A stretch of 64,000 nucleotides of DNA from a virus. Every line of letters starts with the position of its first letter. Positions within the stretch are counted from its first letter, which is position 1. Positions 4,915-45,570 of this stretch are shown piece after piece. The notes below the pieces were generated by a model that saw nothing but the letters and a program-made list of their open reading frames with translations, had not been told where the DNA came from and did not search any database. A program made the position numbers and the translations under genes. The DNA lies in IMG/VR virus record IMGVR_UViG_3300027659_000010. One strand, 5' to 3'.

Positions 4915-5451
4915 CTAAGTTTCGTCTCTCTGCCTGCGAGCTCTACGTTCAGCTGCTAATATAAAGACTTTTTCGTTATCATTGGTCCAATCTTCTGGAA
5001 CCGGCACTCCGTTTATCGAGTGAGGTTCCTGTTCATCGTAGGTCCATCCCAATGCTCGCATCATACGATGCTTGACCAATAGGTTAGGGCTACGAAACGC
5101 TTCAGTGTCTCGGAAGCCTAACATAACACCGATTTCACAAACAGCACCACTGCGACACACGCCGGCATGGCAATGCACAACAACATTCATGCGATTTTCA
5201 AATGCGTATTGCAGTAAGCGCACAAGTTCGTTGGCCTGCTCTTGACTACACCGCATGGCTTCGTCTAAGGCATGATCCTTTTCTTCTATGTCTAAAAACT
5301 GGAATTGATGAACTTCTTTGAATTGATGCTTGGGAGTAGGAAACTCCATGTCAGGATCTACAATTTGGATCAGCATAGAGTTTATACCCGCGTCGATGTG
5401 ATGTCCTTTTGGGATGTCGCTGAGTGCTACGTTCTGTATCCATGGATTCAC
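4915..5451 (-). CDS. CX5R (tyrosine/dual-specificity) phosphatase-like protein
   Basis: VHCHAGVCRS P-loop. Confidence 0.8.
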   Translation of the reverse strand: MNPWIQNVALSDIPKGHHIDAGINSMLIQIVDPDMEFPTPKHQFKEVHQFQFLDIEEKDHALDEAMRCSQEQANELVRLLQYAFENRMNVVVHCHAGVCRSGAVCEIGVMLGFRDTEAFRSPNLLVKHRMMRALGWTYDEQEPHSINGVPVPEDWTNDNEKVFILAAERRARRQRDET

Positions 5452-5452
5452 A

Positions 5453-5875
5453 TCATGCTCCTGTTATTGCAAAAATTTTATTGGCTAACACACGTTCTTT
5501 AGAATAGGCTTCTATCTCCCAAGGTTGGTCGTAGTAGCTTTTGCGTATGTGCTGCCCCATCCAATAGTGTGTTTTACAACTGCGACTGGGCTTAATCTGA
5601 CCACGAGCATACTGTTTGACATGTACCATTTCGTGCGCCAAGGTAATGATCAGTCTTTCAAACTCCAGTCCAGAATCTATGATCATAGTTATAAATTTTG
5701 GACCTACTTTATGCACCACACCTCGCATGCCTTCTTTACGGGCCATTCCTTTTTCAGTCATGATTAACAGAGTGAAACGGCTGCGATTCAATCCCAGTTC
5801 TTTGGCAAAGAAATTCGCGGAAGTTTCTATGATTGATTTGGTAGAACTAGCTCTACCTTCCATGATGATCTGCAT
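5453..5875 (-). CDS. HExxH zinc metallopeptidase-like protein
   Basis: AHEMVHVKQY...PWEIEAY; start moved to ATG 5875, downstream of the promoter. Confidence 0.7.
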   Translation of the reverse strand: MQIIMEGRASSTKSIIETSANFFAKELGLNRSRFTLLIMTEKGMARKEGMRGVVHKVGPKFITMIIDSGLEFERLIITLAHEMVHVKQYARGQIKPSRSCKTHYWMGQHIRKSYYDQPWEIEAYSKERVLANKIFAITGA

Positions 5876-5902
5876 CTGTGGCCTTTGAAGATTGTTTATA
5901 CT

Positions 5903-5931
5903 ATTATACAATCACTATCGCTGTGTGTCAA
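5903..5931 (-). promoter_or_regulatory. sigma70-type promoter
   Basis: TTGACA-17nt-TATAAT. Confidence 0.85.
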
Positions 5932-5932
5932 G

Positions 5933-6006
5933 TGGTGCTCTCAGGTGGTAATGCTCCACCGTTTCTACATTACCAATGTAGTGTAATGCTTTTATACTAT
6001 GAGAGC
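5933..6006 (-). tRNA. tRNA-Thr(GGT), non-canonical T-loop
   Basis: cloverleaf, CTACA-TTGGTAA-TGTAG, T-loop AGCATTA, CCA. Confidence 0.8.
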
Positions 6007-6010
6007 GGCG

Positions 6011-6085
6011 TGGTCCGGCCAGCAGGAATCGAACCCACATTCGCGAGGTAGAAGCTCGCTGTATTATCCATTATACTATGGCCAG
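6011..6085 (-). tRNA. tRNA-Arg(TCT)
   Basis: GCGAG-CTTCTAC-CTCGC, GTTCGA, CCA. Confidence 0.9.
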
Positions 6086-6086
6086 T

Positions 6087-6662
6087 TTAGTCTATTTGAA
6101 TGTCTGCGGCTAATACAAATCTGTATTGAAGGCTCTGTACGATGCCGGGGCGGTGCCACATGTTGCCGGGATAGATCAACCAATTACCGTCTGTGGGGCG
6201 CACAAAATATCTGTCATCAGATTGTGGACCCTCTGGTGCCATCTCTGTACCGCAATAGTCTCGATCTTTAACATCCTCGGGTATGTGTAGATACCAAATA
6301 CCACTGAGTATTTGTGCGGTAGGGGTAGTAGGATGCCAATGATGATGCCAGAGATTATCACGGTTTTCGGCACCCTCGAGATTGGTCATAAAACTCCAGG
6401 CCATCATGTTAGATATTTTGGCTTCACGGCCTAGATACATGAATACACTCATCATAAAACTCACACGGTACTTTAACCATACAGCCTCCGATCTAGCAAA
6501 GATGTTTTCTTTGGTCTGGAACTTAGGTGAATTGGTAAAATAGTTACCGTCGGCAATGATGCCTTTGATAATCTCACAGGCTGCGAGATCATCCTGTTTG
6601 GTTATTAGAGATGAGAAATCGTATTTGCAAGCCTGAGGATTATGATCTATAACTTTCAACAT
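6087..6662 (-). CDS. putative 2OG-Fe(II) oxygenase
   Basis: WHHHWH...LSGIWYL...IYPGNMWH...RFVLA double-stranded beta-helix pattern. Confidence 0.55.
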   Translation of the reverse strand: MLKVIDHNPQACKYDFSSLITKQDDLAACEIIKGIIADGNYFTNSPKFQTKENIFARSEAVWLKYRVSFMMSVFMYLGREAKISNMMAWSFMTNLEGAENRDNLWHHHWHPTTPTAQILSGIWYLHIPEDVKDRDYCGTEMAPEGPQSDDRYFVRPTDGNWLIYPGNMWHRPGIVQSLQYRFVLAADIQID

Positions 6663-6668
6663 ATTATT

Positions 6669-6742
6669 TGGAGCGGGGTAAGAGAATCGAACTCTCCGCT
6701 TTAGCTTGGAAGGCTAAGGTATTACCACTATACGAACCCCGC
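6669..6742 (-). tRNA. tRNA-Gly(TCC)
   Basis: canonical cloverleaf, TCCA end. Confidence 0.95.
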
Positions 6743-6760
6743 ATAGATTTATTTACTCAT

Positions 6761-6835
6761 TGGCCTCACTGCCAGGAATCGAACCTGGATCTAATTCTTA
6801 GGAGGAACTTGTTCTATCCATTGAACCACAGCGAG
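6761..6835 (-). tRNA. tRNA-Arg(CCT)
   Basis: AGTTC-CTCCTAA-GAATT, CCA. Confidence 0.9.
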
Positions 6836-6838
6836 CAA

Positions 6839-7066
6839 TCAGACTTTTTTAAGGTATTCTCGACCTACAGCACCTGACTGCACATCTAACAGTGCGCCAA
6901 CAGGTGCGTTCATCTGAGTCTGTAGTTCAGCTGCTTTGTGTCTGCGACTGAGCTCTCTGGCACGAGCTGATGCTATCAGCACCAAGTCGAATCTATTACC
7001 GCCTACATTTTCCACACATTTTTCTGTGTCAATTTCAGGACCACGACTTAGTGTTTTGTTTTTCAT
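6839..7066 (-). CDS. rpoZ: RNA polymerase omega subunit-like protein
   Basis: CVENVGGNRFDLVLIASARAREL...PVGALLDV matches the omega signature NRF.LVL.A..RAR.L. Confidence 0.8.
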   Translation of the reverse strand: MKNKTLSRGPEIDTEKCVENVGGNRFDLVLIASARARELSRRHKAAELQTQMNAPVGALLDVQSGAVGREYLKKV

Positions 7067-7080
7067 ACATACCTTATAGT

Positions 7081-7154
7081 TGGTTGCGGGACCCGGAATC
7101 GAACCAGGAACTAGAGCTTATGAGACTCTCGAGATACCGTTTCTCTATCCCGCG
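7081..7154 (-). tRNA. tRNA-Met(CAT), initiator-like
   Basis: C1:A72 mismatch, CTCATAA loop; lacks the GGG/CCC anticodon stem. Confidence 0.85.
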
Positions 7155-7160
7155 ATAGTT

Positions 7161-7736
7161 TTAAATCAAGGCTTCAGCTTGCAATACAGCCACTACATCT
7201 TCTGAAAGAGGTATCTCTGTTTTGATGTTAAGTTCTAACACCTCGTCATTGATCTTTTGTTTCTGTTTTTTCAGACTCAACACTTCTGCTTTGGCCTGTG
7301 CAATCTGTTCTAATCCCAGCACCCCTGTGGTCACTGTGTCACTGTAGCCGTAGATACGACTGCGAGTAGATTCGCTCTTGTCGTTGCGGATCTTGTCCAA
7401 CTTGCCTTTGATCACATCTAGTGCAGTGATCTCTGTGGCCTTGGCCAATTCTTCTAGCTGACCTATACGCTTATCTATAAAAGCTGCTTTGGCCAAAGCA
7501 GTGTCGATACCGCTGGCGCTGTTAGCTGTGCCTACTAGGGCACGGATATTGTACAGAGCCATGGTAAGCTTCTGACGGCGACCGTCATTTTCTACCAAGA
7601 CACTATTGGCTTTGGTGATAACGTCCTCGACTGATTGGAACTCATTGATCTCAACAGTGAGATCAATTTTGATGTTCTTAATTGCTTCTGTGATGCTGTT
7701 CTGCACAGCATTTGCTTTTCTCAGTGTGATATTCAT
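7161..7736 (-). CDS. hypothetical coiled-coil protein
   Basis: 191-aa helical ORF with AAAGGA SD. Confidence 0.75.
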   Translation of the reverse strand: MNITLRKANAVQNSITEAIKNIKIDLTVEINEFQSVEDVITKANSVLVENDGRRQKLTMALYNIRALVGTANSASGIDTALAKAAFIDKRIGQLEELAKATEITALDVIKGKLDKIRNDKSESTRSRIYGYSDTVTTGVLGLEQIAQAKAEVLSLKKQKQKINDEVLELNIKTEIPLSEDVVAVLQAEALI

Positions 7737-7744
7737 TTTTTTCC

Positions 7745-8022
7745 TTTTTCAAACAACAATGACGGATCGACGAAAGGTCAAGTAATAGACCGGACAATGG
7801 ACAATGAAGGGTTGTAATCTTCGTTGACAATGTGCAAATAACAATACACAGAGGTCCATATATTTCCGATTAACAAATGACATTCTATTAGAGATCGGAT
7901 CACATAAACACGTTCCAATTTTCAAGGTTGGATTGTAAGTTCGGATTAGGATTGTAGCCTAAACCTATTTGTCTATCCTCTTCTACCCTTCGCTTCACCG
8001 GTCACGTTATTTCTAACGCAAC
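7745..8022 (-). ncRNA. candidate long structured leader/ncRNA
   Basis: about 280 nt non-coding between consensus promoter and gene; repeated ACAAT/ATTGT motifs. Confidence 0.45.
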
Positions 8023-8028
8023 AAAACA

Positions 8029-8057
8029 ATTATAACATGGTCTAGGGTGTTTGTCAA
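8029..8057 (-). promoter_or_regulatory. sigma70-type promoter
   Basis: TTGACA-17-TATAAT. Confidence 0.85.
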
Positions 8058-8073
8058 CACTTATTGGTAAAAT

Positions 8074-8147
8074 TGGTGCCCCGTGACAGAATCGAACTGC
8101 CAACCCCTGATTACAAAACAGGTGTTATACCACTTAACTAACAGGGC
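8074..8147 (-). tRNA. tRNA-Thr(TGT)
   Basis: cloverleaf, CCA. Confidence 0.9.
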
Positions 8148-8164
8148 CTTATAGTATATATCTC

Positions 8165-8238
8165 TGGTGGAGGATGAGAGAATCGAACTCTCAATCTCGA
8201 CTTGCAAAGCCGATGTTATCCCATTTAACTAATCCCCC
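8165..8238 (-). tRNA. tRNA-Ala(TGC)
   Basis: cloverleaf, G3:U70. Confidence 0.95.
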
Positions 8239-8244
8239 GGAATT

Positions 8245-8424
8245 TTATTGTTTGCCTGTGTCGGGCTTGCGACCTTTTTCACGTTTAGGTTGTATGGCTG
8301 CACATAGTTCAGCGTCAATCATAGCACGTTTCCACTGCCCCTTTTGATGTGCATCTTTGAACTTGCCTGTGGCTAAACTGATTTTTAGCAGCGAACTCAT
8401 TCTATAATTTGGACCTGGTTTCAT
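8245..8424 (-). CDS. small basic hypothetical protein (59 aa, MKPGPNYRMSS...)
   Basis: hand-translated ORF with AAGGAA SD; below ORF-track cutoff. Confidence 0.65.
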   Translation of the reverse strand: MKPGPNYRMSSLLKISLATGKFKDAHQKGQWKRAMIDAELCAAIQPKREKGRKPDTGKQ

Positions 8425-8446
8425 ATATTTCCTTTTTAAAAAAAAT

Positions 8447-8536
8447 TGGCGGAAGACCGGGGACTCGAACCCCGAAGACGTTTTAAAGCGACCGACGGTT
8501 TAGCAAACCGCTCCAATACCATTATGGGAGTCTTCC
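8447..8536 (-). tRNA. tRNA-Ser(GCT)
   Basis: long variable arm, GCCA end. Confidence 0.95.
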
Positions 8537-8543
8537 GTATTAC

Positions 8544-8617
8544 TGGTACCTCGTGACAGAATCGAACTGCCGTATCCCACTTGTAAGGAGGGCATTCTAC
8601 CATTAAATTAACGAGGC
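8544..8617 (-). tRNA. tRNA-Val(TAC)
   Basis: cloverleaf, CCA. Confidence 0.9.
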
Positions 8618-8620
8618 ATA

Positions 8621-8789
8621 ACCATTAAAAAATAACATTACACCCTATGGGATGAGACGGATTTCTGAGTGGAGTTCGATTCTCCTCATCAGCCATTGTC
8701 CACGGTTGTTTCAGAAGAGTAAGATGGCCCTATTCTTCATAAGTCTATGCGTCCATAGACGATACCCGCTAATGCTATTTTTTAATGGT
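8621..8789 (-). ncRNA. candidate multi-stem ncRNA closed by a 20-bp stem
   Basis: ACCATTAAAAAATAGCATTA / TAATGTTATTTTTTAATGGT with internal hairpins. Confidence 0.55.
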
Positions 8790-8866
8790 GCCCCCAGCGA
8801 GACTCGAACTCGCACCCGAAGACTGGCTTCTAAGACCAGCGTGTCTACCAATTCCACCACAGGGGC
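8786..8866 (-). tRNA. tRNA-Leu(TAG)
   Basis: cloverleaf, CCA. Confidence 0.95.
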
Positions 8867-8880
8867 CTAACACATCAACT

Positions 8881-8909
8881 ATTATACGACAATTTTAGAC
8901 TCTTGTCAA
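8881..8909 (-). promoter_or_regulatory. sigma70-type promoter inside tRNA array
   Basis: TTGACA-17-TATAAT. Confidence 0.85.
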
Positions 8910-8917
8910 GAGTTTTT

Positions 8918-9001
8918 TGGTGCGAGTGGAGGGACTCGAACCCTCATGCCCTAAGACGGGAGATTTTAAATCTCCTGAGTATGCCATTTCTCCACACTCG
9001 C
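8918..9001 (-). tRNA. tRNA-Leu(TAA)
   Basis: cloverleaf, variable arm, CCA. Confidence 0.95.
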
Positions 9002-9006
9002 ATTCT

Positions 9007-9082
9007 TGGTGCTGCCTCCCCGGATCGAACAGGGTTCCTCGGATTTTCAATCCGTTGCTATGACCACATCAGCTAAAGCAGC
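9007..9082 (-). tRNA. tRNA-Phe(GAA)
   Basis: cloverleaf, CCA. Confidence 0.95.
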
Positions 9083-9490
9083 TTAGTCCACAGTAGTGTC
9101 AACTACCTCTACACTAACATCTTCGGAATAGTATCCATTACTGGAACCATACCATCGAACTGTTACACTACCTTTTCGTGTACGAAAACGATAGAATGTC
9201 CATGTGTATGATTCTTCGTATTCATTTAGTGGCCCAGCTTCATAGTTAGAAACTTCTTCAGCTTCTATTAATGGTGCTCCGACTAGGTCTTCAAGATCCC
9301 CACAGATGTCTTCTATGTAAACACTTTCACAACAGTTTTGATGATGTTGGAATCGTACATAGTTTGTCTTTGACAGATACAAAGTTAGTGTTTCGTCATC
9401 TGCTTCTGCCTTGTATAATGTTCGTCCTAGTAGTTCATCGAACTCTCGAACAGAACCTTTTAATGTGTTTAATGTTTTTATTTTTTCCAT
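9083..9490 (-). CDS. conserved phage hypothetical protein
   Basis: HHQNCCESVYIEDICGDL...SYTWTFY...RWYGSSNGYYSE, a common phage family. Confidence 0.75.
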   Translation of the reverse strand: MEKIKTLNTLKGSVREFDELLGRTLYKAEADDETLTLYLSKTNYVRFQHHQNCCESVYIEDICGDLEDLVGAPLIEAEEVSNYEAGPLNEYEESYTWTFYRFRTRKGSVTVRWYGSSNGYYSEDVSVEVVDTTVD

Positions 9491-9500
9491 AATAATTCCT

Positions 9501-9575
9501 TGGGGAGAATGATGGGAATCGAACCCACGCGACGAGAATCACAATCTCGGATGCTACCATTACATCACAGACTCC
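9501..9575 (-). tRNA. tRNA-His(GTG)
   Basis: G-1, C73, CCA. Confidence 0.9.
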
Positions 9576-9581
9576 ATTGAC

Positions 9582-9656
9582 TGGCACCACCGCCACGAGT
9601 CGAACGTGAACTTAAACTTTCGCAAAGTTTCGTGATATCCCTTTCACTACAGTGGT
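9582..9656 (-). tRNA. tRNA-Arg(GCG)
   Basis: AAACT-TTGCGAA-AGTTT, GCCA end. Confidence 0.85.
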
Positions 9657-9815
9657 ATCTTTTTCCAACACATCCTTACGCATAAGAAACATTCTAGAAT
9701 TTTCAGGACGATGAACAACTAGATATTCAACGTCGTCTATTCTTTCTACATTGCGAATGTTCTCGCAGATAACTCGCTCGTTGTTTAGACGATTTCGAAA
9801 TATAATAGGTTTCAT
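9612..9815 (-). CDS. small hypothetical protein (MKPIIFRNRLNNER...), 3' end overlaps tRNA-Arg(GCG)
   Basis: AAGGAG SD before ATG 9815. Confidence 0.6.
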   Translation of the reverse strand: MKPIIFRNRLNNERVICENIRNVERIDDVEYLVVHRPENSRMFLMRKDVLEKDTTVVKGISRNFAKV

Positions 9816-9832
9816 GCTGATCTCCTTTAATA

Positions 9833-9907
9833 TGGCCGGGCTTAGAGGAATCGAACCTCTACCTGCGGTTTCGAAGACCGTAATGATATCCATTTCACCA
9901 AAGCCCG
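9833..9907 (-). tRNA. tRNA-Arg(TCG)
   Basis: ACGGT-CTTCGAA-ACCGC. Confidence 0.9.
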
Positions 9908-9914
9908 ATAAAGT

Positions 9915-9988
9915 TGGCACGGGAACTAGGGCTCGAACCTAGAATGACAGAGTCAAAGTCTGTAGTGTTACCATTACACTATTCCCGA
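9915..9988 (-). tRNA. tRNA-Gln(TTG)
   Basis: cloverleaf, GCCA end. Confidence 0.9.
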
Positions 9989-9996
9989 ACAGAAAC

Positions 9997-10072
9997 TGGT
10001 CTCCCTACTAGGATTCGAACCTAGACCACACGGCCCCAAACCGCGGATGCAACCAGATAACACTTTAGAGAG
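9997..10072 (-). tRNA. tRNA-Pro(TGG)
   Basis: cloverleaf, CCA. Confidence 0.9.
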
Positions 10073-10077
10073 ATAAT

Positions 10078-10152
10078 TGGTGGAGGACCAGGGTATCGAA
10101 CCCTTGTAGTCATGAGTCTTGCAAGGACCCACCGCCGTCCTCGGCTTCCCCC
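10078..10152 (-). tRNA. atypical tRNA-Ala(TGC)-like
   Basis: G3:U70, D-arm with 4-nt loop, 7-bp anticodon stem, GTTCGA T-loop, ACCA. Confidence 0.7.
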
Positions 10153-10158
10153 AAATTT

Positions 10159-10233
10159 TGGTGGTAATGGAAAGAGTCGAACTTTCACTGGGCACCGTAT
10201 GAAGGTGTTGCACTACCGTTATGCTACATTACC
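10159..10233 (-). tRNA. tRNA-Met(CAT) (elongator or Ile2)
   Basis: loop TTCATAC, CCA. Confidence 0.85.
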
Positions 10234-10291
10234 ATATAGAAACACACTATGCCACGCTCTGAACCTGGACTCTTAGTAATGTGTTTTTATA

Positions 10292-10366
10292 TGGTAGGGG
10301 CACAGGGACTCGAACCCTGATAGACCGGTTAAAAGCCGGCTATTCTAGCCTTTGAATTATACCCCC
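10292..10366 (-). tRNA. tRNA-Lys(TTT)
   Basis: cloverleaf, CCA. Confidence 0.95.
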
Positions 10367-10369
10367 ATA

Positions 10370-10444
10370 TGGTCCCTCCGGGCAGACTTGAACTGCCAAC
10401 CAGCGGATTAAGAGTCCGTTGCGCTACCATTGCGCCACGAAGGG
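10370..10444 (-). tRNA. tRNA-Lys(CTT)
   Basis: cloverleaf, CCA. Confidence 0.95.
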
Positions 10445-10539
10445 ATGGATCGTAAATATTTTCTTTTACGTGCCATCCAGGACCATACGGGGTCTAGGAT
10501 GACACTAGAGTTTACCTCGTTTCATGTCATTCTCCGTTG

Positions 10540-11997
10540 TTAATATTTCTGAGTACTTAACTTTTTATCTTTGTAAGATTGTATTTTTGGCAGTGCAACC
10601 GCAAGGTCACCCTGGCTGAATTTAGCAGTTTCATTTAGTCTGTTGATTAGACCACCGTCAATCCCTATCGATGCAAGAGCCCAACAGTTAAATGTAAAAC
10701 CATTTTCTTTCTTAAACAGCTCACGCCACATTTTTTCTTGTAGATCCGTTGCTTGATTTATATTCATAAACTTGTTTTGCCAATGTAATACTGTAGAAGC
10801 AACCTTAGCATCCTGGTCCTCGTTAGATCGTATGATCGCATCATCCATCACGGTATAACCATATTTTTTATAGTCTATACTAATTTTAGATTGTGTGTCA
10901 AACTCTCCCGCTGGTATTTCTAAAACAAATGGAAGAAATGATTGTCCTCGCCAGTTTTCTTTTAACCAGTCAATTGTTCTTTCTATTTGTTCTACAGTAT
11001 CCCCTGGTAGACCTATAATAAAACTTATATTTCCCCGGTACAATCCCCGGTTCATAAAATAGTTTTTACTATCTATCAATCCTGCTTTTATCCTGTCAGG
11101 GTCCATGCCCTTACCGATAACTTTAACTGACTCTTTGTTAAAACTTTCTATACCATAATGGTGACCAAGAAATCCTAATCTAGCTAATTCTTCTTTTTCT
11201 TCTTTTCTAGCTATCATTAAGTCTGCCCTAATAAACCCACTAAACCAAGGACGAAATGGCAATAGTTGTGTTACATCAGCAAATTTGGTTATTTTTTCTG
11301 TTCGATCATTAAATGTTTCGTCGGATACATAGTAGTTAGTAACTCCAAACCTATCATAGGCATCCATAACTTGTATGTAGTAATCTAATGCATCTCTGCT
11401 GTAATCTCCTTTTACACCTAGTACAGGAAAGTTACAAAATGCACATCTAAACTTACAGCCTCGAGCAAACTCAATTCCTAACCACTCGTCGGGACTAATG
11501 TAGTCCCGGTCTTGATACTTTACCATTAAACTTTTCATTGGAAACGAAGGATACATTTCATTTCCGTTGATTAACTTTTTATTGAAAATAGAAAACTTTG
11601 GAAGTTCTCCGTTGCTAAAAAGCCATTTTAGCAAAACTAACAAAGCGTTTTCGCCGAAACCTTGAATGTAATAATCTATACACTTTGATTTGAACTGTGG
11701 AGCAACTCCTGAGCCTGATATTAAAACAACCCCAGGATACTCAATCTTCAACCATTCTGTAAAGTTTTCTAATTCTACACTCCACACCGAAAACATGTGA
11801 CCAAATCCTATAAATTTTGTGTCTTTATCGATTCTTGATCTAGACAGTTCTTTTAACTCATCTAAAGTCCAATATAAAGTATAATCGATAACCTCAGAGT
11901 CCCAATCATGTTCTCTAAGATAGTGTGCTATTCTGTATACACCTAAATTCCTTCCTAACTGGTTAGTTGAAACATTGAATAATAAACATTTATGCAT
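10540..11997 (-). CDS. B12-binding-domain radical SAM protein
   Basis: RGCKFRCAFC (CxxxCxxC), DETFN, GIES, IIGLPGDT; N-terminal Rossmann-like domain. Confidence 0.85.
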   Translation of the reverse strand: MHKCLLFNVSTNQLGRNLGVYRIAHYLREHDWDSEVIDYTLYWTLDELKELSRSRIDKDTKFIGFGHMFSVWSVELENFTEWLKIEYPGVVLISGSGVAPQFKSKCIDYYIQGFGENALLVLLKWLFSNGELPKFSIFNKKLINGNEMYPSFPMKSLMVKYQDRDYISPDEWLGIEFARGCKFRCAFCNFPVLGVKGDYSRDALDYYIQVMDAYDRFGVTNYYVSDETFNDRTEKITKFADVTQLLPFRPWFSGFIRADLMIARKEEKEELARLGFLGHHYGIESFNKESVKVIGKGMDPDRIKAGLIDSKNYFMNRGLYRGNISFIIGLPGDTVEQIERTIDWLKENWRGQSFLPFVLEIPAGEFDTQSKISIDYKKYGYTVMDDAIIRSNEDQDAKVASTVLHWQNKFMNINQATDLQEKMWRELFKKENGFTFNCWALASIGIDGGLINRLNETAKFSQGDLAVALPKIQSYKDKKLSTQKY

Positions 11998-12021
11998 TGT
12001 TTATTTAAATGATTAGGCTAC

Positions 12022-12097
12022 TGGAGTTTAATAAAACAGGATAGCATCTTTTTTCATTAAAAGTGAAATTGGATTTTTGCTGTTGCTATACTAAACT
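12022..12097 (-). ncRNA. armless tRNA-like RNA with Lys(UUU) anticodon stem-loop
   Basis: AGTTTAGTA/TATTAAACT stem + CCA; TAGCA/TGCTA; TTTCA-CTTTTAA-TGAAA. Confidence 0.5.
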
Positions 12098-12171
12098 TGG
12101 TTCCCAGAACAAGAATCGAACTTGTAATGACCGGTTATCAGCCGATTGTTATACCATTTAACTATCCGGGA
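12098..12171 (-). tRNA. tRNA-Ile(GAT)
   Basis: cloverleaf, CCA. Confidence 0.95.
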
Positions 12172-12175
12172 AAAT

Positions 12176-12265
12176 TGGTGGAAGCGGTGAGATTCGAACT
12201 CACGGACCCTTTCGAGCCGTCTGTTTTCAAGACAGGTGCAATAAACCGGACTCTGCCACACTTCC
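12176..12265 (-). tRNA. tRNA-Ser(TGA)
   Basis: long variable arm. Confidence 0.95.
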
Positions 12266-12273
12266 ATAAACTT

Positions 12274-12354
12274 TGGTACCCCTGCCCGGACTCGAACCGG
12301 GATACATAACACTCCTTTTGAGAGAGCTGCCTTTACCAATTTGGCCACAGGGGC
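12274..12354 (-). tRNA. tRNA-Leu(CAA)
   Basis: GCTCT-CTCAAAA-GGAGT. Confidence 0.9.
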
Positions 12355-12360
12355 ATTACG

Positions 12361-12452
12361 TGGTACCAGCGGAGGGAATCGAACCCTCTCAAGAACGCTA
12401 ATCTGGCGCTAAAAGGTTTATAAAACCTCTCTGACTACCAAGTCTCGCTGGC
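12361..12452 (-). tRNA. atypical tRNA with TAT anticodon (Ile-like), long variable arm
   Basis: 7/5 acceptor/T fold, D-arm GACT-TGGT-AGTC, 6-bp anticodon stem, ACCA. Confidence 0.75.
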
Positions 12453-12457
12453 ATTAT

Positions 12458-12535
12458 TGGAAGTGCGGGTGAGATTTGAACTCACGGTTTTAGAGTTTTG
12501 CAGACTCTTGCATTGGACCTCTCTGCCACCGCACT
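12458..12535 (-). tRNA. tRNA-Cys(GCA)
   Basis: U73, CCA. Confidence 0.95.
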
Positions 12536-12541
12536 ATAGAT

Positions 12542-12615
12542 TGGCTACCCACCAGGGACTCGAACCCCGACGAACAGTTTTGGAGACTGTCATGCTGCCA
12601 TTACATCAGTGAGTA
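12542..12615 (-). tRNA. tRNA-Trp(CCA)
   Basis: cloverleaf. Confidence 0.95.
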
Positions 12616-12620
12616 ATTCT

Positions 12621-12694
12621 TGGAGCGGGTAGCGAGAATCGAACTCGCGAATAAACCTTGGCAAGGTTTCAGGTTACCATTACATCATACCCGC
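12621..12694 (-). tRNA. tRNA-Gly(GCC)
   Basis: cloverleaf. Confidence 0.95.
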
Positions 12695-12700
12695 ATTATA

Positions 12701-12775
12701 TGGTACACGGTACGAGAATCGAACTCGTCTTTCCGCCTTGAAAGGGCAGCGTCCTAACCGATAGACGAACCGTGC
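12701..12775 (-). tRNA. tRNA-Glu(TTC)
   Basis: cloverleaf. Confidence 0.95.
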
Positions 12776-12782
12776 ATAATAT

Positions 12783-12858
12783 TGGCTCCCCAGCGTGGGA
12801 TCGAACCACGGACACCTTGATTAACAGTCAAGTGCAACTACCGCTGTGCTACTGGGGA
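12783..12858 (-). tRNA. tRNA-Asn(GTT)
   Basis: cloverleaf. Confidence 0.95.
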
Positions 12859-12864
12859 ATAAAC

Positions 12865-12940
12865 TGGCGCCTCGTAGGGGAGTCGAACCCCTGTGTTCCG
12901 CTAGACAGGCGGGCATAATAGACCGTTATATGAACGAGGC
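12865..12940 (-). tRNA. tRNA-Asp(GTC)
   Basis: cloverleaf, loop CTGTCTA. Confidence 0.9.
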
Positions 12941-12946
12941 AAAACT

Positions 12947-13034
12947 TGGTGGGGACTGAAGGAATCGAACCTAACCGCCAGCCACTCTGCAATTAAGGCA
13001 AGAGATTTACAGTCTCCCGCAGAGAACAGCCCCC
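12947..13034 (-). tRNA. atypical D-arm-less tRNA-Tyr(GTA)-like
   Basis: 8-bp acceptor, GAGA-CTGTAAA-TCTC arm, GTTCGATTC T-loop, ACCA; no D-arm. Confidence 0.65.
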
Positions 13035-13260
13035 AAATCGAAAACACTCTCCATCGACTATGTCAACCTGTCCTTTCGATACATGAAAGTAGGAGAGTGT
13101 GTATTAAAGTACTCTAAACTACTTAGGCTGCCTGTTCGTAAAGAATACTTTAATACGCTACCATTTTTTTATCCACATAAGGATAAGCCATCCGGTAGGC
13201 CGCCCATTCGCCCATTTTAAGTGCGGGCTAGGATCTCGTTTCCTATCACACTCTTCGAAC

Positions 13261-13431
13261 TTAATGATCAGTGGACTCGAGAAGATTACTCTTCTTCAAA
13301 GCTTCTCTGAGCTTGTAGGCTCGGTCAAACTTATCTTGAATAAGTTTGCGTGTCTGTTCATCGGTTAAGGTATAAGCAGATACGTAAGCCTGTTCAACTT
13401 TTTTATTGTGTTCTATCTGTTCTCTATGCAT
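13261..13431 (-). CDS. small hypothetical protein (56 aa, MHREQIEHNKK...), first gene after the attenuator
   Basis: hand-translated; AAGGAG SD. Confidence 0.65.
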   Translation of the reverse strand: MHREQIEHNKKVEQAYVSAYTLTDEQTRKLIQDKFDRAYKLREALKKSNLLESTDH

Positions 13432-13444
13432 TTTTCTCCTTTAT

Positions 13445-13481
13445 AAAAACAAAAACCCCAGGGTGTTTATTCCTGGGGTCC
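13445..13481 (-). terminator. intrinsic terminator of the tRNA-operon leader
   Basis: ACCCCAGG-9nt-CCTGGGGT followed by TTTTGTTTTT. Confidence 0.85.
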
Positions 13482-13505
13482 TTTGAAGTAGCTGTGTATT
13501 TTCTG

Positions 13506-13649
13506 TTACACTAACATCTCCACGGACCCCGGCTGTAGCTCTGGTGTGCGATCATTAGATATACTATCAATCGCGAGCCAATATGAGGGCACAAAGCCTC
13601 CCATCTGGGCTAGGGATTTACAAGATCTATGTAATGATGCTGTTTTCAT
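13506..13649 (-). CDS. putative leader peptide (47 aa) of a tRNA-operon attenuator
   Basis: MKTASLHRSCKSLAQMGGFVPSYWLAIDSISNDRTPELQPGSVEMLV; 3' end contains GGGGTCC, complementary to the terminator 5' arm. Confidence 0.7.
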   Translation of the reverse strand: MKTASLHRSCKSLAQMGGFVPSYWLAIDSISNDRTPELQPGSVEMLV

Positions 13650-13699
13650 TGTCTTTTCATTTCCTTGAAAGTCACACACTGTTTCTAGTGCATGTGTTA

Positions 13700-13728
13700 A
13701 TTATACATGTATTTAGTCTCTGTGTCAA
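13700..13728 (-). promoter_or_regulatory. sigma70 promoter of tRNA operon (TAAATA in spacer)
   Basis: TTGACA-17-TATAAT. Confidence 0.85.
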
Positions 13729-13783
13729 CCTCTATTTGCACTTCTGGCAAAAAAGTTTTGACTCTTTGCTAAACATTACTGCT

Positions 13784-13812
13784 AGTATACGGTCTTTTTA
13801 TTTATGTGTCAA
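13784..13812 (-). promoter_or_regulatory. second tandem sigma70 promoter (TAAATA in spacer)
   Basis: TTGACA-17-TATACT. Confidence 0.8.
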
Positions 13813-13841
13813 CCTAGACCCGGCCTGTTTATGTGGCTTTT

Positions 13842-14087
13842 TTACAACAGATCATCCTGTGCGATCAGTAGATGCTTGCCGATTTCAAAGAGTCCGACTC
13901 CGCCTGGCAGGTCCAAGGCACTGACATGTATCTGCGCCACTCCATCTCGGTCGAGAGTACAGGCTACCATTTCTCGGATCTCGCCCTGTTCAATCAATTC
14001 TTTTACGTGGTTGATCACTTCGAGCAGTGATTGCTTGCGCTCTTCATCTTCTTTGCCCTTGGGATCAAATGTGTAAACGTTGTTCAT
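13842..14087 (-). CDS. hypothetical protein
   Basis: ORF coupled to clpP by ATGA overlap. Confidence 0.7.
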   Translation of the reverse strand: MNNVYTFDPKGKEDEERKQSLLEVINHVKELIEQGEIREMVACTLDRDGVAQIHVSALDLPGGVGLFEIGKHLLIAQDDLL

Positions 14088-14659
14088 AGCATTAAATGAT
14101 CCGCTACGCCGATTTCCACAGTTTCTTCTGCGGTAAGATAGACATCTGAGGCTGGCAACAATTTTTTCTTGATCACTGATGGTGCCAGTCCAGTGGCTGT
14201 TTTCAAAATAGATACCATGCGTTCATTGCAGCTGTCATTTTCTCGCATGGTGGCTTTGAGATCGTGATATTTATTGTCCATGCTTTCTGAAAATTGGTGG
14301 CACATGAAACTGGTGTTCTTGGCAGCGTATCTTTCACCGTGGGTGCCTGATGCAAAGATCAGAAATGCTGCGCTCATCACAGCACCTATGCCCACACAGC
14401 GTAGTTTATGGGGACTGGCTTGCATGACATCTATCAAGGCAAATGCCTGATAAAGATCTCCTCCGGCGGAGTTGATGTACAGAGTCAGAGTTTTTTCTTT
14501 GGCTACATCGAGATTTTCATAGATCAACCAGCGCACACATTCGCCCACAGAATCCTCGTTGATCTCACCGTTGAGGAAAAAGGTACTGGATTCCAGTAGT
14601 TTGAGATCAATCTGATCCTCAGCATTGAAATATTCTGATCGTTTCACTTTCTGCTCCAT
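14084..14659 (-). CDS. clpP: ClpP-family protease subunit
   Basis: LYINSAGG, GAVMSAA (catalytic Ser), FMCHQ, DVYLTAEE...G.AD. Confidence 0.85.
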   Translation of the reverse strand: MEQKVKRSEYFNAEDQIDLKLLESSTFFLNGEINEDSVGECVRWLIYENLDVAKEKTLTLYINSAGGDLYQAFALIDVMQASPHKLRCVGIGAVMSAAFLIFASGTHGERYAAKNTSFMCHQFSESMDNKYHDLKATMRENDSCNERMVSILKTATGLAPSVIKKKLLPASDVYLTAEETVEIGVADHLML

Positions 14660-14716
14660 GCGTATGCTTTACTTATCCTTAATATATTATAGCATGATTA
14701 ACTGCGTATATTATAG

Positions 14717-14986
14717 TCAAATATGCCAATTTTTGGAATCTGAATTCCAATGCCTGCGATCATAGACTTGGAATTCTACATTATAGCCCACTAGTCCAAT
14801 ACCCATGTGCAGCCCTGCATGGCTCTGTTTATGAGTGAATCTGATAAAAATATCTACTATGTCTGCACCCTTGTAGATCTGCAGTTCCCAAAATTTATTC
14901 CTAAAGACAGTAGATCCGTGCCAACATCTGATATTTTCAAATCTATCACTGCCAGGTATCCTGAGATTGAGCTGTAGGCTTATCAT
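14717..14986 (-). CDS. hypothetical protein
   Basis: ORF in coupled run. Confidence 0.6.
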   Translation of the reverse strand: MISLQLNLRIPGSDRFENIRCWHGSTVFRNKFWELQIYKGADIVDIFIRFTHKQSHAGLHMGIGLVGYNVEFQVYDRRHWNSDSKNWHI

Positions 14987-15168
14987 TCTGGCTGTTCTCG
15001 AAATCGTGTCAAAAAACTTTCTTCATAACAGCTGAATTCATTGGGCATGTGATCTTGGGGTTTTTCTGCTCGATAATATACCCAATCTTTGCCGTCTATA
15101 TTAGTGGTGCTAATCACCACAAATACTTTGCCGTCGCTGCCTGCCCACTTTGATCCCTGTTTCACCAT
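14983..15168 (-). CDS. hypothetical protein
   Basis: ORF with SD. Confidence 0.65.
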   Translation of the reverse strand: MVKQGSKWAGSDGKVFVVISTTNIDGKDWVYYRAEKPQDHMPNEFSCYEESFLTRFREQPE

Positions 15169-22034: not shown

Positions 22035-24086
22035 CTATTTGCTGGTAGCTATAAAAACACCATTCCAATCTGCAGGTAATTTCTGTGTCAATTGGAACTC
22101 ACATCGCTCTATCCACATATCATAATAGCCAGTTAATCTACCGTCGAATTGATCTCTCAGCTGTTTGCACATGCTAATCGCTGTGCTGAAATTCTGTGAT
22201 CTGTATGCACCATGCATGGCATTGTGTATTTTCTTAGACACGTGATAGTCAGCAGCGACATCGTCCAACACTGTGTAAATAGCTACCCCTACTGTCTTGC
22301 CCTTGACTGCTAGGTCATCTACTTTTAGGAAGAAGAAATCATCACCACACTGTTCTACTGTGGCACCGCCGACTAATAGCACACACCCGTATTCTTTGCA
22401 TTTGCTTTCAATACGTGCGGCTGTGGAAACTGCATCACCTAAGACATCATACGAATGGCGTCGAGTTGATCCCATCTCTCCTATATAACCTAGACCAGTA
22501 TTGATACCTGCGCCCATTTTGACTCCTGGACGTCCTGTGGCTTCTAACTTGATGCTGAATTCTTTTACAGCCTTCAACATCTTGAGTCCAGTGGCCACTG
22601 CGGTCTTGGCGTGGTGAGGATCATCTATAGGTGCGTTATGGATGTGCATGCTGGCATCACCAATATATTTGATGATCATACCATCAGCATCTAACACAGG
22701 CTGAGTGATGGCATCCATGTAACCATTCATCACTGCTGTTAGTCCTTTGACATCATCTCCAAAACTTTCACCGAGAGGGGTAAAGCCACGTAGGTCGGAA
22801 AACACTATAGATACTTCACGCTTGGTTCCGTTCTTGATAATGTCTGGATTTTCCTGCAAGAGTTTGACCACTGTGGGACTGGCATATCCCTCAAACTGTT
22901 TCTTAATGGCCTGCTTCTGTAAGAACTCGCTTACAAACTTGACACCATAGGCATGCAAAGCGACCAAGACTGTGCCAACAAGAATGGCAGTAGCATCAAA
23001 TAAGAATAGAAAATTAGAGAAAGCGTAGTGACTGCCAAAGACCACGCCAATACATATAATGATAACACTCGCAAGTCCCGCATATACCCACCTCGTTAAA
23101 AACAATAATAATAATCCCGCAGCTAGAATTGCAATAATTTCTACGCCGTCTGCATAGTCGGGTCTTTCTATAACCACTCCATTTGCCATAGTGGCAATCA
23201 CACTGGCCTGTACATCATGCGGGAACACTGCGCCTATGCTGGTTGGCAAGGGATTACTGATTCCTGCGGCTGTCGGACCTACTATAACGACAGCTCCTCC
23301 AAAGTCTTTAGGCAAGTTAGTTATACTCACTGATTTATTCTGCTGACTCCAGTCAATCCATATACGTCCTAATGGATCTGTGCTGATAGGACCAAACTTT
23401 GGAATACGCATTTTCTCAACACCGTATTCGTTTAGTTTGATCTGGAAGGTAGAATCGCCTGCAGCAGCACGTAGAGTTTCTAAACTTAGACTGGGATACA
23501 AATTATCGTTGACACTGACCACTAATGGTATGCGCCGATTCACTCCATCAACTTCTGGCAGGGTTGAAACAATACCTATGCCCGCTGCGCTGTTTTCTAA
23601 TTTCGATATATTGGCAATTAATCCAGGATACTGCACAATTTGATCCTGCCACTCAGGTCCTATAACTGCACTACCCGGCTTGCGTGGCGTGTTTTTGGTT
23701 TTTCCACTAGGCACTGACCCTAGTATCACAGGATACTTTTTTAGAGCATTTGCGAGAACATCACCACCACCAGTACGATCAGGCTCAGCCATGATAATGT
23801 TAAGCACAACAAGGCCAGCGCCGCGATCATAGAGATCTTTAATAATTTTCGCATACTCTTCTCTCGGTAATGGCCATTGCCCATATTTGTCCAAAGCACT
23901 TTCATCTATGTTGACCGTATAGATGTTGTTGTCTGTGATTTCTTTGGCAGTGATCAGTGTATCAAAGTAGCGTAGTCTTATGCTCTCTACAAAGACAGGA
24001 TCAGCGATTCTTATACTTATAATAAGTGCCAATGTCAGCAGTGCTGTCCACGGATTAGTAAGGATTTTTTTTAGTTGATTTCTCAT
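22035..24086 (-). CDS. CHASE2-domain class III adenylate/guanylate cyclase
   Basis: IDE.AL..YGQWP.PR (CHASE2), 3 TM helices, FSDLRGFT, KYIGDA, GDAVSTAARIES. Confidence 0.9.
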   Translation of the reverse strand: MRNQLKKILTNPWTALLTLALIISIRIADPVFVESIRLRYFDTLITAKEITDNNIYTVNIDESALDKYGQWPLPREEYAKIIKDLYDRGAGLVVLNIIMAEPDRTGGGDVLANALKKYPVILGSVPSGKTKNTPRKPGSAVIGPEWQDQIVQYPGLIANISKLENSAAGIGIVSTLPEVDGVNRRIPLVVSVNDNLYPSLSLETLRAAAGDSTFQIKLNEYGVEKMRIPKFGPISTDPLGRIWIDWSQQNKSVSITNLPKDFGGAVVIVGPTAAGISNPLPTSIGAVFPHDVQASVIATMANGVVIERPDYADGVEIIAILAAGLLLLFLTRWVYAGLASVIIICIGVVFGSHYAFSNFLFLFDATAILVGTVLVALHAYGVKFVSEFLQKQAIKKQFEGYASPTVVKLLQENPDIIKNGTKREVSIVFSDLRGFTPLGESFGDDVKGLTAVMNGYMDAITQPVLDADGMIIKYIGDASMHIHNAPIDDPHHAKTAVATGLKMLKAVKEFSIKLEATGRPGVKMGAGINTGLGYIGEMGSTRRHSYDVLGDAVSTAARIESKCKEYGCVLLVGGATVEQCGDDFFFLKVDDLAVKGKTVGVAIYTVLDDVAADYHVSKKIHNAMHGAYRSQNFSTAISMCKQLRDQFDGRLTGYYDMWIERCEFQLTQKLPADWNGVFIATSK

Positions 24087-24227
24087 GACTGTATTTATTT
24101 GCGGGTTTTGTTCTAGCTTTGGCAAATATTCTATTGGTCAGTTGTCCGTGGTTTTTCTTATCTTCTTCTAGTTGGCGGTGTAAATGTCTTTTGAAATCGT
24201 CGTCAGTCATTGTGTTCCTTGGTTAGT

Positions 24228-33852: not shown

Positions 33853-35757
33853 TTAGTCTGCTTTCTTCTCTGTGAAGGTAGCATCAACTACATCATCTTG
33901 GCCAGGCATCGATCCTGCATCAGCTTGTGCTTGTGCTTGATCTTTGGCCTGCCTTTTTTCCAGCAATGTTTTCATTGCAGGGAAAACTTTGTTGAGTGCT
34001 TCGGTGATTTTTTCTTTGTCATCACCTTTGACTGCTTCTTCTACTTCTTTGATCACAGTTTCAAGTTCTGTAATTTCCGCATCAGTGAGGTCACTGCGGA
34101 ATTCTTCGAGATCTTTTTTCACTTCATGGATCTGTGCTTCTGCAGAATTTTTCACATCGATCAATTCACGAGCTTTCTTGTCTGCTTCAGCATTGAGTTC
34201 TGCATCTTTGATCATGGCCTGTATTTCTGCATCGCTGAGCCCACTGTTGGATTTGATAGTGATTTTATTTTCTTTGCCTGTGCTTTTGTCTTTGGCAGAG
34301 ATATGCATGATACCATTAGCATCAATATCAAATGTGACTTCGATCTGGGGCTGGCCTCTGCGAGCAGGTGCGATACCTTCTAGATTAAATTCACCTAGCA
34401 ATTTGTTATGCTGCACCAGTTCACGCTCACCTTGGAACACCTTGATGGTCACTGCAGGTTGATTGTCGTCTGCTGTGGAGAATGTCTGTTGTCCTTTGGT
34501 AGGGATAGTGGTGTTTTTCTGTATGATTTTCGTCATCACACCGCCCAGTGTTTCAATACCAAGGCTCAACGGAGTCACGTCCAATAACAATACATCTTTA
34601 CGATCACCACCCAACACTGCACCCTGTATGGCAGCACCTACAGCCACTGCTTCGTCTGGGTTCACATCTCTGCGAGGTGCTTTACCAAACAGTGCTTCCA
34701 CAGCTTCTTGCACCTTAGGCATACGTGTCATTCCACCCACTAGGATAACTTCATCTATGTCAGCAGCAGTGACCCCTGCATCTTTCATAGCAGTCTTGCA
34801 GGGTTCTATAGAGCGTGTTATCAATTCAGCAACCAAACTTTCTAGTTTGCTGCGAGTGATCTTGATGTTCATGTGACGTGGACCGCTGGCATCTGCAGTG
34901 ATATAAGGCAGATTCACATCAGTCTGTGCAGAACTTGAAAGTTCAATCTTGGCTTTTTCTGCTGATTCTTTAAGTCTCTGTAACGCCAACATATCTTTAG
35001 TCAGATCCACACCCTGATCTTTCTTGAACTCTTCTACCAAATAGTCCATGATGCGTTGATCAAAGTCTTCACCGCCTAAGAATGTATCTCCATTGGTACT
35101 CAATACTTCAATCTGCTTTTCTCCGTCAACGTTAGCAATTTCGATTATAGACACATCAAAGGTACCACCACCTAGATCGTAGACAGCAATTTTTCTGTCT
35201 GCCTTGTCCTGTTTGTCTACACCATAGCTCAGTGCAGCCGCGGTAGGTTCGTTGATAATACGTAGAACTTCTAGCCCAGCGATCTTGCCAGCATCCTTGG
35301 TAGCTTGTCTTTGGCTGTCATTGAAATAGGCCGGTACAGTGATCACTGCCTGCGTGACTGTGGTTCCAAGATAATCTTCTGCGGTCTTTTTCATTTTACG
35401 CAGAACTTCTGCGGAAATCTGTGGGGGTGCTAGTTCTTTGCCTGCGGCTCGTACCCATGCATCACCATTACTGGCTTCCATGATTTCATATGGCATCAAG
35501 TCAAGATCTTTTTGTATGGCCTGTTCTTTGAACTTGCGACCAATCAATCTCTTGCTGGCGTAGATTGTGTTTTTTGGATTAGTTACTGCCTGACGCTTGG
35601 CTGATGCACCGACTAACACTTCGTCGTTGGCATATGCCACGATACTAGGTGTAGTTCTAGCACCTTCGTTGTTTTCAATAACTTTGGGAATTCCGTTCTC
35701 GATAACAGCCACGCATGAGTTGGTGGTGCCGAGGTCAATACCGATGATCTTAGACAT
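33853..35757 (-). CDS. dnaK: chaperone DnaK
   Basis: [19 protein letters not shown], full length. Confidence 0.98.
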
Positions 35758-45046: not shown

Positions 45047-45120
45047 TGATATTTCCTTTTAAAAGTAAATGACTTGTATGTCAATGTTTAGTATATAGTA
45101 TTTCTGCTATGCATGTCAAG

Positions 45121-45147
45121 AAAAAGCGGCTACGAATAGCCGCTTTT
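45121..45147. terminator. intrinsic terminator after tmRNA
   Basis: AAAAGCGGCTA-cgaa-TAGCCGCTTTT. Confidence 0.8.
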
Positions 45148-45149
45148 GG

Positions 45150-45510: not shown

Positions 45511-45570
45511 AACTTCAATCAATACAAATACAACAATAAGAATTGCTACAATGAATTGATAGGCTTTCAT
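45502..45570 (-). CDS. 22-aa hydrophobic peptide (MKAYQFIVAILIVVFVLIEVFM)
   Basis: hand-translated single TM helix directly after cspA. Confidence 0.45.
   Translation of the reverse strand: MKAYQFIVAILIVVFVLIEVFM

Follow-up and report, generated by a model that had tools for sequence, protein, structure and literature searches.

The subject of this report is a candidate transcription attenuator upstream of a tRNA gene array in a stretch of 64,000 nucleotides (nt), hereafter the window, from an uncultured giant phage genome (IMG/VR record IMGVR_UViG_3300027659_000010). The genes of the region lie on the minus strand. In the direction of transcription they are preceded by two tandem promoters, P1 (13784-13812; TTGACA-17-TATACT, 11 of 12 consensus positions) and the proximal P2 (13700-13728; TTGACA-17-TATAAT, 12 of 12). 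A leader open reading frame (ORF) of 47 codons plus TAA follows (13506-13649, with the ATG at 13649 and the stop codon at 13508-13506), and then a predicted intrinsic terminator (13445-13479). Beyond the terminator lie the first gene under its presumed control, an ORF for a 56-amino-acid protein (13261-13431) with an AGGAG Shine-Dalgarno sequence at 13440-13436, and about 32 tRNA genes (5936-13035). The whole element, with its sigma-70 promoters and intrinsic terminator, is compact at about 250 nt. The leader ORF uses 33 distinct codons and has reached all 20 amino acids by codon 37, which encodes Glu. A first-pass annotation, made from this one sequence, had proposed that the leader samples codons and, together with the terminator, gates the tRNA array. 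Its peptide, coordinates and counts for the ORF are all correct, as are its two promoters, and its small ORF followed by 32 tRNA genes agrees with the count made here; the proposal as a whole is supported in silico, with refinements.

Promoters, leader ORF and alternative hairpins

Both promoters are conserved in relatives of the phage: P2 is kept in the leader alignment, and the TTGACA and -10 boxes of P1 are kept in 9 aligned relatives. Transcription from P2 is predicted to start near 13693. In the minimum free energy (MFE) fold the transcript begins with a 5'-terminal stem-loop, AUGCACU/AGUGUGU (about 13674-13693), and an A-rich stretch separates this stem-loop from the leader ORF. An alignment read by eye places a hairpin at the same site in relatives, built from other sequences such as GACAGCA/UGCUGUC, and the stem-loop would presumably serve as a 5' stabiliser. 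A hairpin of the same type, with an AGAAA loop, recurs within the array region, where a promoter at 8057-8029 is followed by GCGUUAGAAAUAACGU (8029-8010). Promoter and 5' hairpin may be a reused module, present at 8057-8010 and at the start of the leader transcript (13693-13674).

Gene finders nearly always miss the leader ORF, and only two near-identical proteins were found among 5.8 billion. A start at an upstream GTG, which would give a peptide of 57 amino acids, was rejected, as the ATG alone is invariant in the alignment. A mini-ORF, MKRQ* (13660-13646), overlaps the start of the leader as had been reported, but only 5 of 101 distinct relatives have it. The mini-ORF is incidental for that reason, and its interpretation as a coupled upstream ORF (uORF) was rejected.

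Two hairpins that share bases can form at the end of the leader. The antiterminator, GGGGUCC...GGACCCC (13475-13530), is a long, imperfect hairpin with the stop codon in its apical helix; its arms correspond to GGGGTCC (13530-13524, 5' arm) and GGACCCC (13481-13475, 3' arm) in the DNA. The terminator, with a predicted free energy of -15.6 kcal/mol, is formed by ACCCCAGG (13479-13472) and CCTGGGGT (13462-13455), separated by a 9-nt loop and followed by TTTTGTTTTT (13454-13445). In the RNA, the 3' arm reads CCUGGGGU (13462-13455) and is followed by UUUUGUUUUU. The consensus scanner missed this terminator because its loop limit is 8 nt. Five bases, ACCCC, are common to the 3' arm of the antiterminator and the 5' arm of the terminator, and the overlap lies at the positions originally proposed. 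The MFE fold of the transcript contains the long hairpin and not the terminator, and is more stable than expected from 200 dinucleotide shuffles (z = -3.75).

A further hairpin, UUGG...CCAG (13541-13581), lies within the ORF over the conserved NDRTPE codons. RNAalifold, applied to a codon-threaded alignment, finds its pairs kept in 71-92% of sequences with little covariation. Synonymous sites near ATGATCG are conserved in the leader alignment. It may be speculated that this hairpin acts as an RNA polymerase pause hairpin, which might explain the conservation of synonymous sites there.

Conservation and amino-acid content of the leader

About 170 relatives, comprising about 130 distinct variants on contigs of up to 364 kb, were collected from IMG/VR along three independent routes, starting from the neighbouring ClpP gene (70 loci), from a pattern for the terminator motif (at least 119 stretches) or from a 16-nt motif within the ORF; the last of these routes is free of any condition on the terminator. 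The leader ORF is kept in every relative retrieved. Sixteen ClpP-linked relatives align over the leader with 70-80% DNA identity; their ATG and TAA are invariant, and their ORFs range from 46 to 49 codons through in-frame indels. The same pattern extends to the roughly 130 distinct relatives, in which ATG and TAA are kept and in-frame indels give peptides of 42-50 amino acids. Counted over all loci, there are 109 distinct leader peptides, 101 of which are 35-57 amino acids long. The peptides share a conserved block, IAKQ.GFMPS.W...SLSNDRTPE, and their C-terminal ends (8-10 residues) vary freely without loss of the RNA pairing in which the corresponding codons take part.

The leader is linked to tRNA genes in the relatives as it is in the window, as the first-pass annotation had expected. 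Wherever more than about 600 nt of downstream sequence is available, a tRNA array follows on the same strand, 200-1036 nt past GGACCC, with up to 35 tRNAs within 7 kb; tRNAs on the opposite strand occur in none of those loci. Loci that show at least 30 tRNAs cover 18-20 amino acids. A further 45 ClpP-linked loci lack the motif and have no tRNAs within 4 kb, so they are silent on more distant versions of the element. Homologues of the 56-amino-acid ORF are frequent: in 106 of 145 loci an ORF of 50-60 codons with a strong Shine-Dalgarno sequence lies 15-19 nt past the U-tract, and its product carries the motif EQAY..LT.EQ..KLIQDKFERA. The 56-amino-acid ORF itself received no usable Pfam, PHROG or Atlas assignment. 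Among GenBank phages, no DNA match to 13200-14100 was found, and tblastn gave only noise (E > 0.4) for the leader peptide and no match for the 56-amino-acid ORF; a relative in culture is not available. The phage also encodes ClpP and a class Ia ribonucleotide reductase, the large subunit of which is nearest to those of Xanthomonas, Ralstonia and Stenotrophomonas phages (54-61% identity).

The most distinctive property of the leader is its composition. All 20 amino acids are present in 88 of the 101 distinct peptides of 35-57 amino acids, including very divergent forms of 42-44 amino acids and two forms of only 35. Random length-matched windows from the long ORFs of the same phages contain all 20 in 3.9% of cases, and the composition of the leaders is thus more than chance. 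The property is not tied to one route of retrieval; all 16 ClpP-linked leaders have it, as do 20 of 22 new leaders retrieved with the ORF motif, independently of the terminator. When the columns of the alignment are shuffled, 17.4 peptides per 100 retain all 20 amino acids, compared with 88 observed, and the maximum in 2000 shuffles is 28. Among 36 representatives with less than 60% identity, 27 contain all 20, compared with 4.7 after column shuffling (maximum 12). Relatedness alone therefore does not explain the property.

The behaviour of the rare residues indicates what is selected. In the 36 representatives, Cys has a mean of 1.03 copies and is single in 31, but it is spread over 22 alignment columns and occurs in different contexts (QCK, HCIA, ACSW, SCW, VCE, IECG, CQGS and GSCN). 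Tyr occupies 18 columns, His 17 and Phe 16. Since rare residues keep their number but change their place, the alignments indicate that selection acts on the presence of each amino acid and not on a folded sequence. The leaders have no runs of regulatory codons, and many amino acids are present as a single copy; Ala averages 2.5 of about 47 residues.

Selection at the level of codons is less clear. The leaders contain a mean of 35.7 distinct codons, compared with 32.8 expected from genome codon usage or 32.2 from family codon usage (standard deviation 0.19), and the joint use of both Leu, Arg and Ser boxes, of ATA with ATY, and of Gly Y with Gly R codons is commoner than in any of 200-300 synonymous resamplings, but these statistics are confounded by shared ancestry and by a third-position bias driven by RNA structure. 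The sampling of separate isoacceptor boxes, which had been claimed for the leader in the window, thus exceeds two null models and is suggestive only. In third positions, G and C are frequent in the structured segments of the RNA (codons 13-23 and codon 37 onward), and codons 2-12 are genome-like. A tuning of leader codon usage to host tRNAs was considered and rejected, as the bias to G- and C-ending codons is confined to those structured segments. Glu codons are GAG in 92% of cases in the leaders, compared with 19% in the long ORFs of the phages, and the conserved GAG (13539-13541) lies exactly at the boundary of the sensing window predicted below.

A two-state RNA switch and its proposed reading by the ribosome

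Both hairpins are conserved by covariation, as the first-pass annotation would require. RNAalifold applied to a MAFFT alignment returned the terminator alone, because MAFFT misaligns the variable antiterminator hairpin, and it was replaced by folds of single sequences, shuffles and tables of pairing partners. All 101 distinct relatives have the antiterminator in their MFE fold, each time with the stop codon inside. In all 101, the segment that pairs with GGACCCY starts 11-28 nt (mostly 20-25) upstream of the stop codon, and the stop codon lies 24-34 nt before GGACCC, within the hairpin. At the closing pair of the conserved base helix, 54 sequences have G-C, 38 have A-U and 3 have G.U, and none has A.C. 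The interior of the hairpin varies by lineage (GUGUAA/UUACAC, GAGUUAA/AAACUC, UUAAGUAA/CUUAA) and is more stable than its dinucleotide shuffles, with a mean z of -3.1 and 82% of values below -2. The terminator likewise has compensatory variants, CCCUAGG/CCUAGGG, CCCUGG/CCAGGG and CCCCUGG/CCAGGGG, all in sequences retrieved independently of the terminator.

The bases shared by the two hairpins are the most informative. In one lineage all three strands are altered together, with GGAGUC upstream, GACUCC as the shared segment and GGAGU downstream. In 120 distinct sequences, the triples of upstream partner, shared base Y and downstream partner are G-C-G in 58, A-U-G in 41, A-U-A in 11 and G-U-G in 4. 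The same nucleotides are held complementary to two different partners, which is the signature of a two-state switch.

The effect of a translating ribosome on this switch was modelled by removing the RNA up to 12 nt (also 10 and 14) past the first base of the A-site codon and calculating, from the partition function of the remaining RNA, the probability of the central terminator pair. For the leader in the window, this thermodynamic model gives the terminator a probability of at most 0.05 while the A site is on any of codons 1-13 or 18-36, and of 1.0 from codon 38 to the stop; codons 14-17, at which CCCUC is a possible competitor for GGGG, give 0.3-0.6. The predicted sensing window, within which the antiterminator is free to form, comprises codons 1-36 (13542-13649). 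The change from antiterminator to terminator occurs 11 to 10 codons before the stop in the 101 relatives, and 76 of 89 leaders with all 20 amino acids contain the full set upstream of the 5' arm. The earlier claim that a stall at any codon before the stop frees the antiterminator thus holds in the model for codons 1 to about 36, but the Glu codon at 37 is borderline.

The following mechanism is suggested by the model and by analogy to the classical attenuation paradigm, which is established for trpL and hisL. Transcription would start at the two promoters, which are of the early sigma-70 type, and a ribosome on the 47-codon leader would trail RNA polymerase closely. If all aminoacyl-tRNAs are available, the ribosome would arrive at the last ten codons or the stop and cover the 5' arm of the antiterminator; GGACCCC would be freed to pair with CCUGGGGU, the terminator would form, and transcription would end at 13445-13454. 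If a tRNA that is scarce, uncharged or cleaved holds the ribosome within codons 1 to about 36, GGGGUCC...GGACCCC would form first and sequester the 5' arm of the terminator, and polymerase would enter the small ORF and the tRNA array. Accumulating phage tRNAs would then relieve the stalls and restore termination, making the system a homeostat. Transcription-translation coupling and efficient termination are presumed in this scheme, and starvation for amino acids, shut-off of the host or defences that cleave tRNAs would be the physiological trigger. No conserved 1:2 anti-antiterminator of the trp type was found, and with a ribosome early in the ORF at most 10-28% of sequences have the terminator in their MFE fold; in the absence of such pairing, an untranslated leader should read through. 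On the strength of the alignments and the masking model, the element is probably a ribosome-mediated attenuator with a "pangram" leader, a trp-style device generalised to the whole aminoacyl-tRNA pool.

Several points weigh against this interpretation. Most of the relatives were fetched with motif patterns, so the invariance of those motifs is in part an artefact of retrieval, and the codon statistics carry the confounding described above. One or two amino acids are absent from about 12% of the leaders. Glu is usually the residue that completes the set, three codons ahead of the 5' arm and at the edge of the predicted sensing window, and for the corresponding codon 37 of the leader studied here the modelled probability of the terminator ranges from 0.2 to 1.0 depending on the footprint. 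The fold model is thermodynamic, not kinetic. Finally, the signals for translation of the leader are weak: 57 of 101 leaders have no Shine-Dalgarno-like core, the core is mostly 11-16 nt from the ATG where it is present, and the downstream ORF, unlike the leader, has a strong and well-spaced Shine-Dalgarno sequence.

Translation of the leader ORF is presumed, and is favoured by the conservation of its frame and by selection for all 20 amino acids, which would be meaningless without translation. In 12 of 101 relatives (loci L025, L185, L008, L016, L075, L096, L100, L105, L124, L164, L071 and L133) a TTGACA-N17-TAnnnT promoter has its -10 box ending 6-9 nt before the leader ATG. The sequence of these 12 indicates that their leader mRNA would be leaderless or nearly so, and this spacing supports the ATG as the true start. 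Other relatives have an A-rich 5' untranslated region of 40 nt, and the A-rich region upstream of the leader (57% A) may support initiation without a Shine-Dalgarno sequence.

Among the alternatives, the one that survives best, while still unlikely, is that the leader is a general sensor of translation rate or ribosome availability, which would register just the pace of ribosomes relative to polymerase and respond to host shut-off or to ribosome-targeting toxins or antibiotics, with its amino-acid content secondary. The geometry of the switch in the masking model would respond to any slowing of the ribosome, and the uORF of actinobacterial whiB7 likewise answers ribosome-targeting drugs (PMC10274678). 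A rate sensor leaves unexplained why all 20 amino acids are retained while single Cys, Tyr, His and Phe residues relocate, and why all 20 are found even in variants of 35 amino acids. Sensing of rate is compatible with attenuation by the aminoacyl-tRNA pool and does not exclude it.

It is improbable that the leader is simply the gene of a small functional protein with its own terminator, in which the hairpin stabilises the mRNA or tunes termination and the tRNAs are transcribed by leak-through. The arrangement of promoter, ORF and terminator is ordinary, and the conserved SLSNDRTPE portion of the peptide block could reflect a function of the peptide, a further point against the attenuator. However, the free variation of the last 8-10 residues under constant RNA pairing and the three-way covariation that ties the last codons of the ORF to the terminator count against a protein gene, as does the tRNA array that always lies immediately downstream. 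The wandering of single residues is unlike the positional conservation of proteins, and the peptide matches no protein family.

There is similarly little reason to expect that the switch mainly controls the conserved small protein encoded after the terminator and that the tRNA genes are passengers. That ORF, with its strong Shine-Dalgarno sequence just past the U-tract in 106 of 145 loci, is well placed for such control; yet about a quarter of the loci show no such ORF, the first tRNA lies only 200-300 nt past GGACCC in some loci, and a leader with all 20 amino acids that is matched by a near-complete tRNA set points to the tRNAs as the controlled genes. Least probable is a non-coding structured RNA, such as a small RNA or a processing signal, with a fortuitous ORF: the fold is strong (z = -3.75) and synonymous sites near ATGATCG are conserved, but in-frame indels leave the reading frame open across about 130 variants, a composition of all 20 amino acids makes sense only for a translated ORF, and an Rfam search (cmscan, E <= 1, positions 5000-15000) returned tRNA and chance matches only, with none within 13445-13812.

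The tRNA array and the relation to known attenuators

Of the tRNA genes in the array, ARAGORN identified 29 at its default setting; the other three (5936-6006, 10078-10152 and 12947-13035) were found with Rfam or with ARAGORN at a low threshold. No promoter matching at least 10 of 12 consensus positions lies between the terminator and the first tRNA block (13035-12098), and the sole promoter-like match there, at 12942-12915 (9 of 12), is inside the first tRNA genes. Promoters matching all 12 positions recur within the array region at 8909, 8057 and 5931. The switch need govern no more than the upstream part of the array, and the earlier statement to this effect, which was drawn from the promoters at 8909 and 8057, is confirmed. 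With P2 there are four perfect TTGACA-17-TATAAT promoters (13728, 8909, 8057 and 5931) on the gene strand within 8 kb (5903-13728); the total count of weaker promoter-like sites is at the level of shuffled sequence.

Two genes of the array have unusual structures. The tRNA-like gene at 12947-13035 (minus strand), which default ARAGORN misses, has the loop CUGUAAA (anticodon GTA, Tyr) and an encoded CCA. Its Rfam match is weak and tRNA-Sec-like (26 bits), and ARAGORN at a low threshold folds it otherwise, as Lys-ctt; it would be the sole tRNA-Tyr of the array. The tRNA-Ile(TAT) at 12361-12452 (minus strand) is 92 nt long with a long variable arm, and its best Rfam match is tRNA-Sec, at 35.7 bits and below threshold. 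Elsewhere in the window, outside the 5000-15000 range of the Rfam scan, ARAGORN reports a permuted tmRNA-like gene (45102-45526, minus strand) with a 33-residue tag ending in ALAA. The phage also carries cargo that is unusual for a phage, all on the minus strand: a radical-SAM enzyme inside the tRNA array (10540-11997), a CHASE2-adenylate/guanylate cyclase (22035-24125), an autotransporter beta-domain protein (24982-27030) and a full-length Hsp70/DnaK (33853-35757).

The proposed mechanism falls in the class of the classical leader-peptide attenuator; what is new is the lack of cognate codon runs and the tRNA array as target. Like trpL, hisL, pheL and leuL and the multivalent thrL and ilvL, the leader is a short ORF between a promoter and the regulated genes, which here begin at 13431. 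As in the enterobacterial attenuators, the 5' arm of the terminator can pair alternatively with an upstream segment, the position of the ribosome would select the fold, and full translation is modelled to give termination. Unlike those systems, the leader has no runs of regulatory codons and covers all 20 amino acids, typically with one or a few copies of each; the element is borne by a phage, and its target is a tRNA array and not a set of biosynthetic enzymes. Unlike trp, it has no conserved 1:2 anti-antiterminator, and the expected result of a failure to translate is read-through instead of super-attenuation.

The closest experimentally studied analogue is the whiB7/wblC uORF of Actinobacteria, in which a long, diverse uORF is likewise coupled to a rho-independent terminator and antiterminator (PMC10274678). 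Removal of the single Trp codon or of the three His codons from the whiB7 uORF abolished sensing of that amino acid only (PMC10274678), a precedent indicating that single codons in a long, diverse uORF can suffice. The whiB7 uORF of M. smegmatis contains 19 of the 20 amino acids, but whiB7 uORFs are variable in composition, enriched in Ala and often lacking in several amino acids, and no selection for completeness has been reported for them (PMC10274678). The output of whiB7 is a transcription factor for stress and drug resistance, whereas here it is tRNA genes and a 56-amino-acid protein, with completeness selected. The two leaders have no sequence relationship, and the resemblance is one of function only. 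The element also resembles a T-box, in that the charging state of tRNA would govern a choice between terminator and antiterminator upstream of translation-related genes; however, a T-box binds one specific uncharged tRNA directly, without a ribosome, and the T-box covariance model is unmatched here. A full-text literature search found no description of a leader peptide with all amino acids or of control of phage tRNA genes by attenuation.

For decades it has been debated why phages carry large sets of tRNAs and how these are controlled. Phage tRNAs have recently been linked to escape from tRNA-cleaving defences (PMC10264068, PMC11555353), which is a plausible selective setting for the element and not evidence for it; the link to anticodon nucleases, which the first-pass annotation also drew, is likewise a plausible rationale and not evidence. 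A more specific possibility, which is offered tentatively and is more doubtful than attenuation as such, is that the leader is an inducible sensor for counter-defence. A full replacement set of tRNAs would be kept off while the host tRNAs are intact, switched on within seconds after any host tRNA is cleaved or depleted, and switched off once decoding is restored. The triggers might then be anticodon nucleases, Schlafen-like, retron or Cas12a3-type effectors, or the phage's own host shut-off.

Its compact size, sigma-70 promoters and intrinsic terminator should make the element directly testable in laboratory proteobacteria, and a further use might be to report global tRNA charging. If the attenuator functions as proposed, classical attenuation ("one amino acid, codon runs") would be extended to "all amino acids, single codons", and the leader would be a striking example of selection that acts on a peptide's composition instead of its sequence. 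Phage tRNA genes would gain a regulatory logic that is driven by demand and limits itself. If, in addition, the counter-defence reading is true, a single cis-element would read the whole decoding capacity of the cell, and this may be a general design principle of the tRNA arrays of giant phages.

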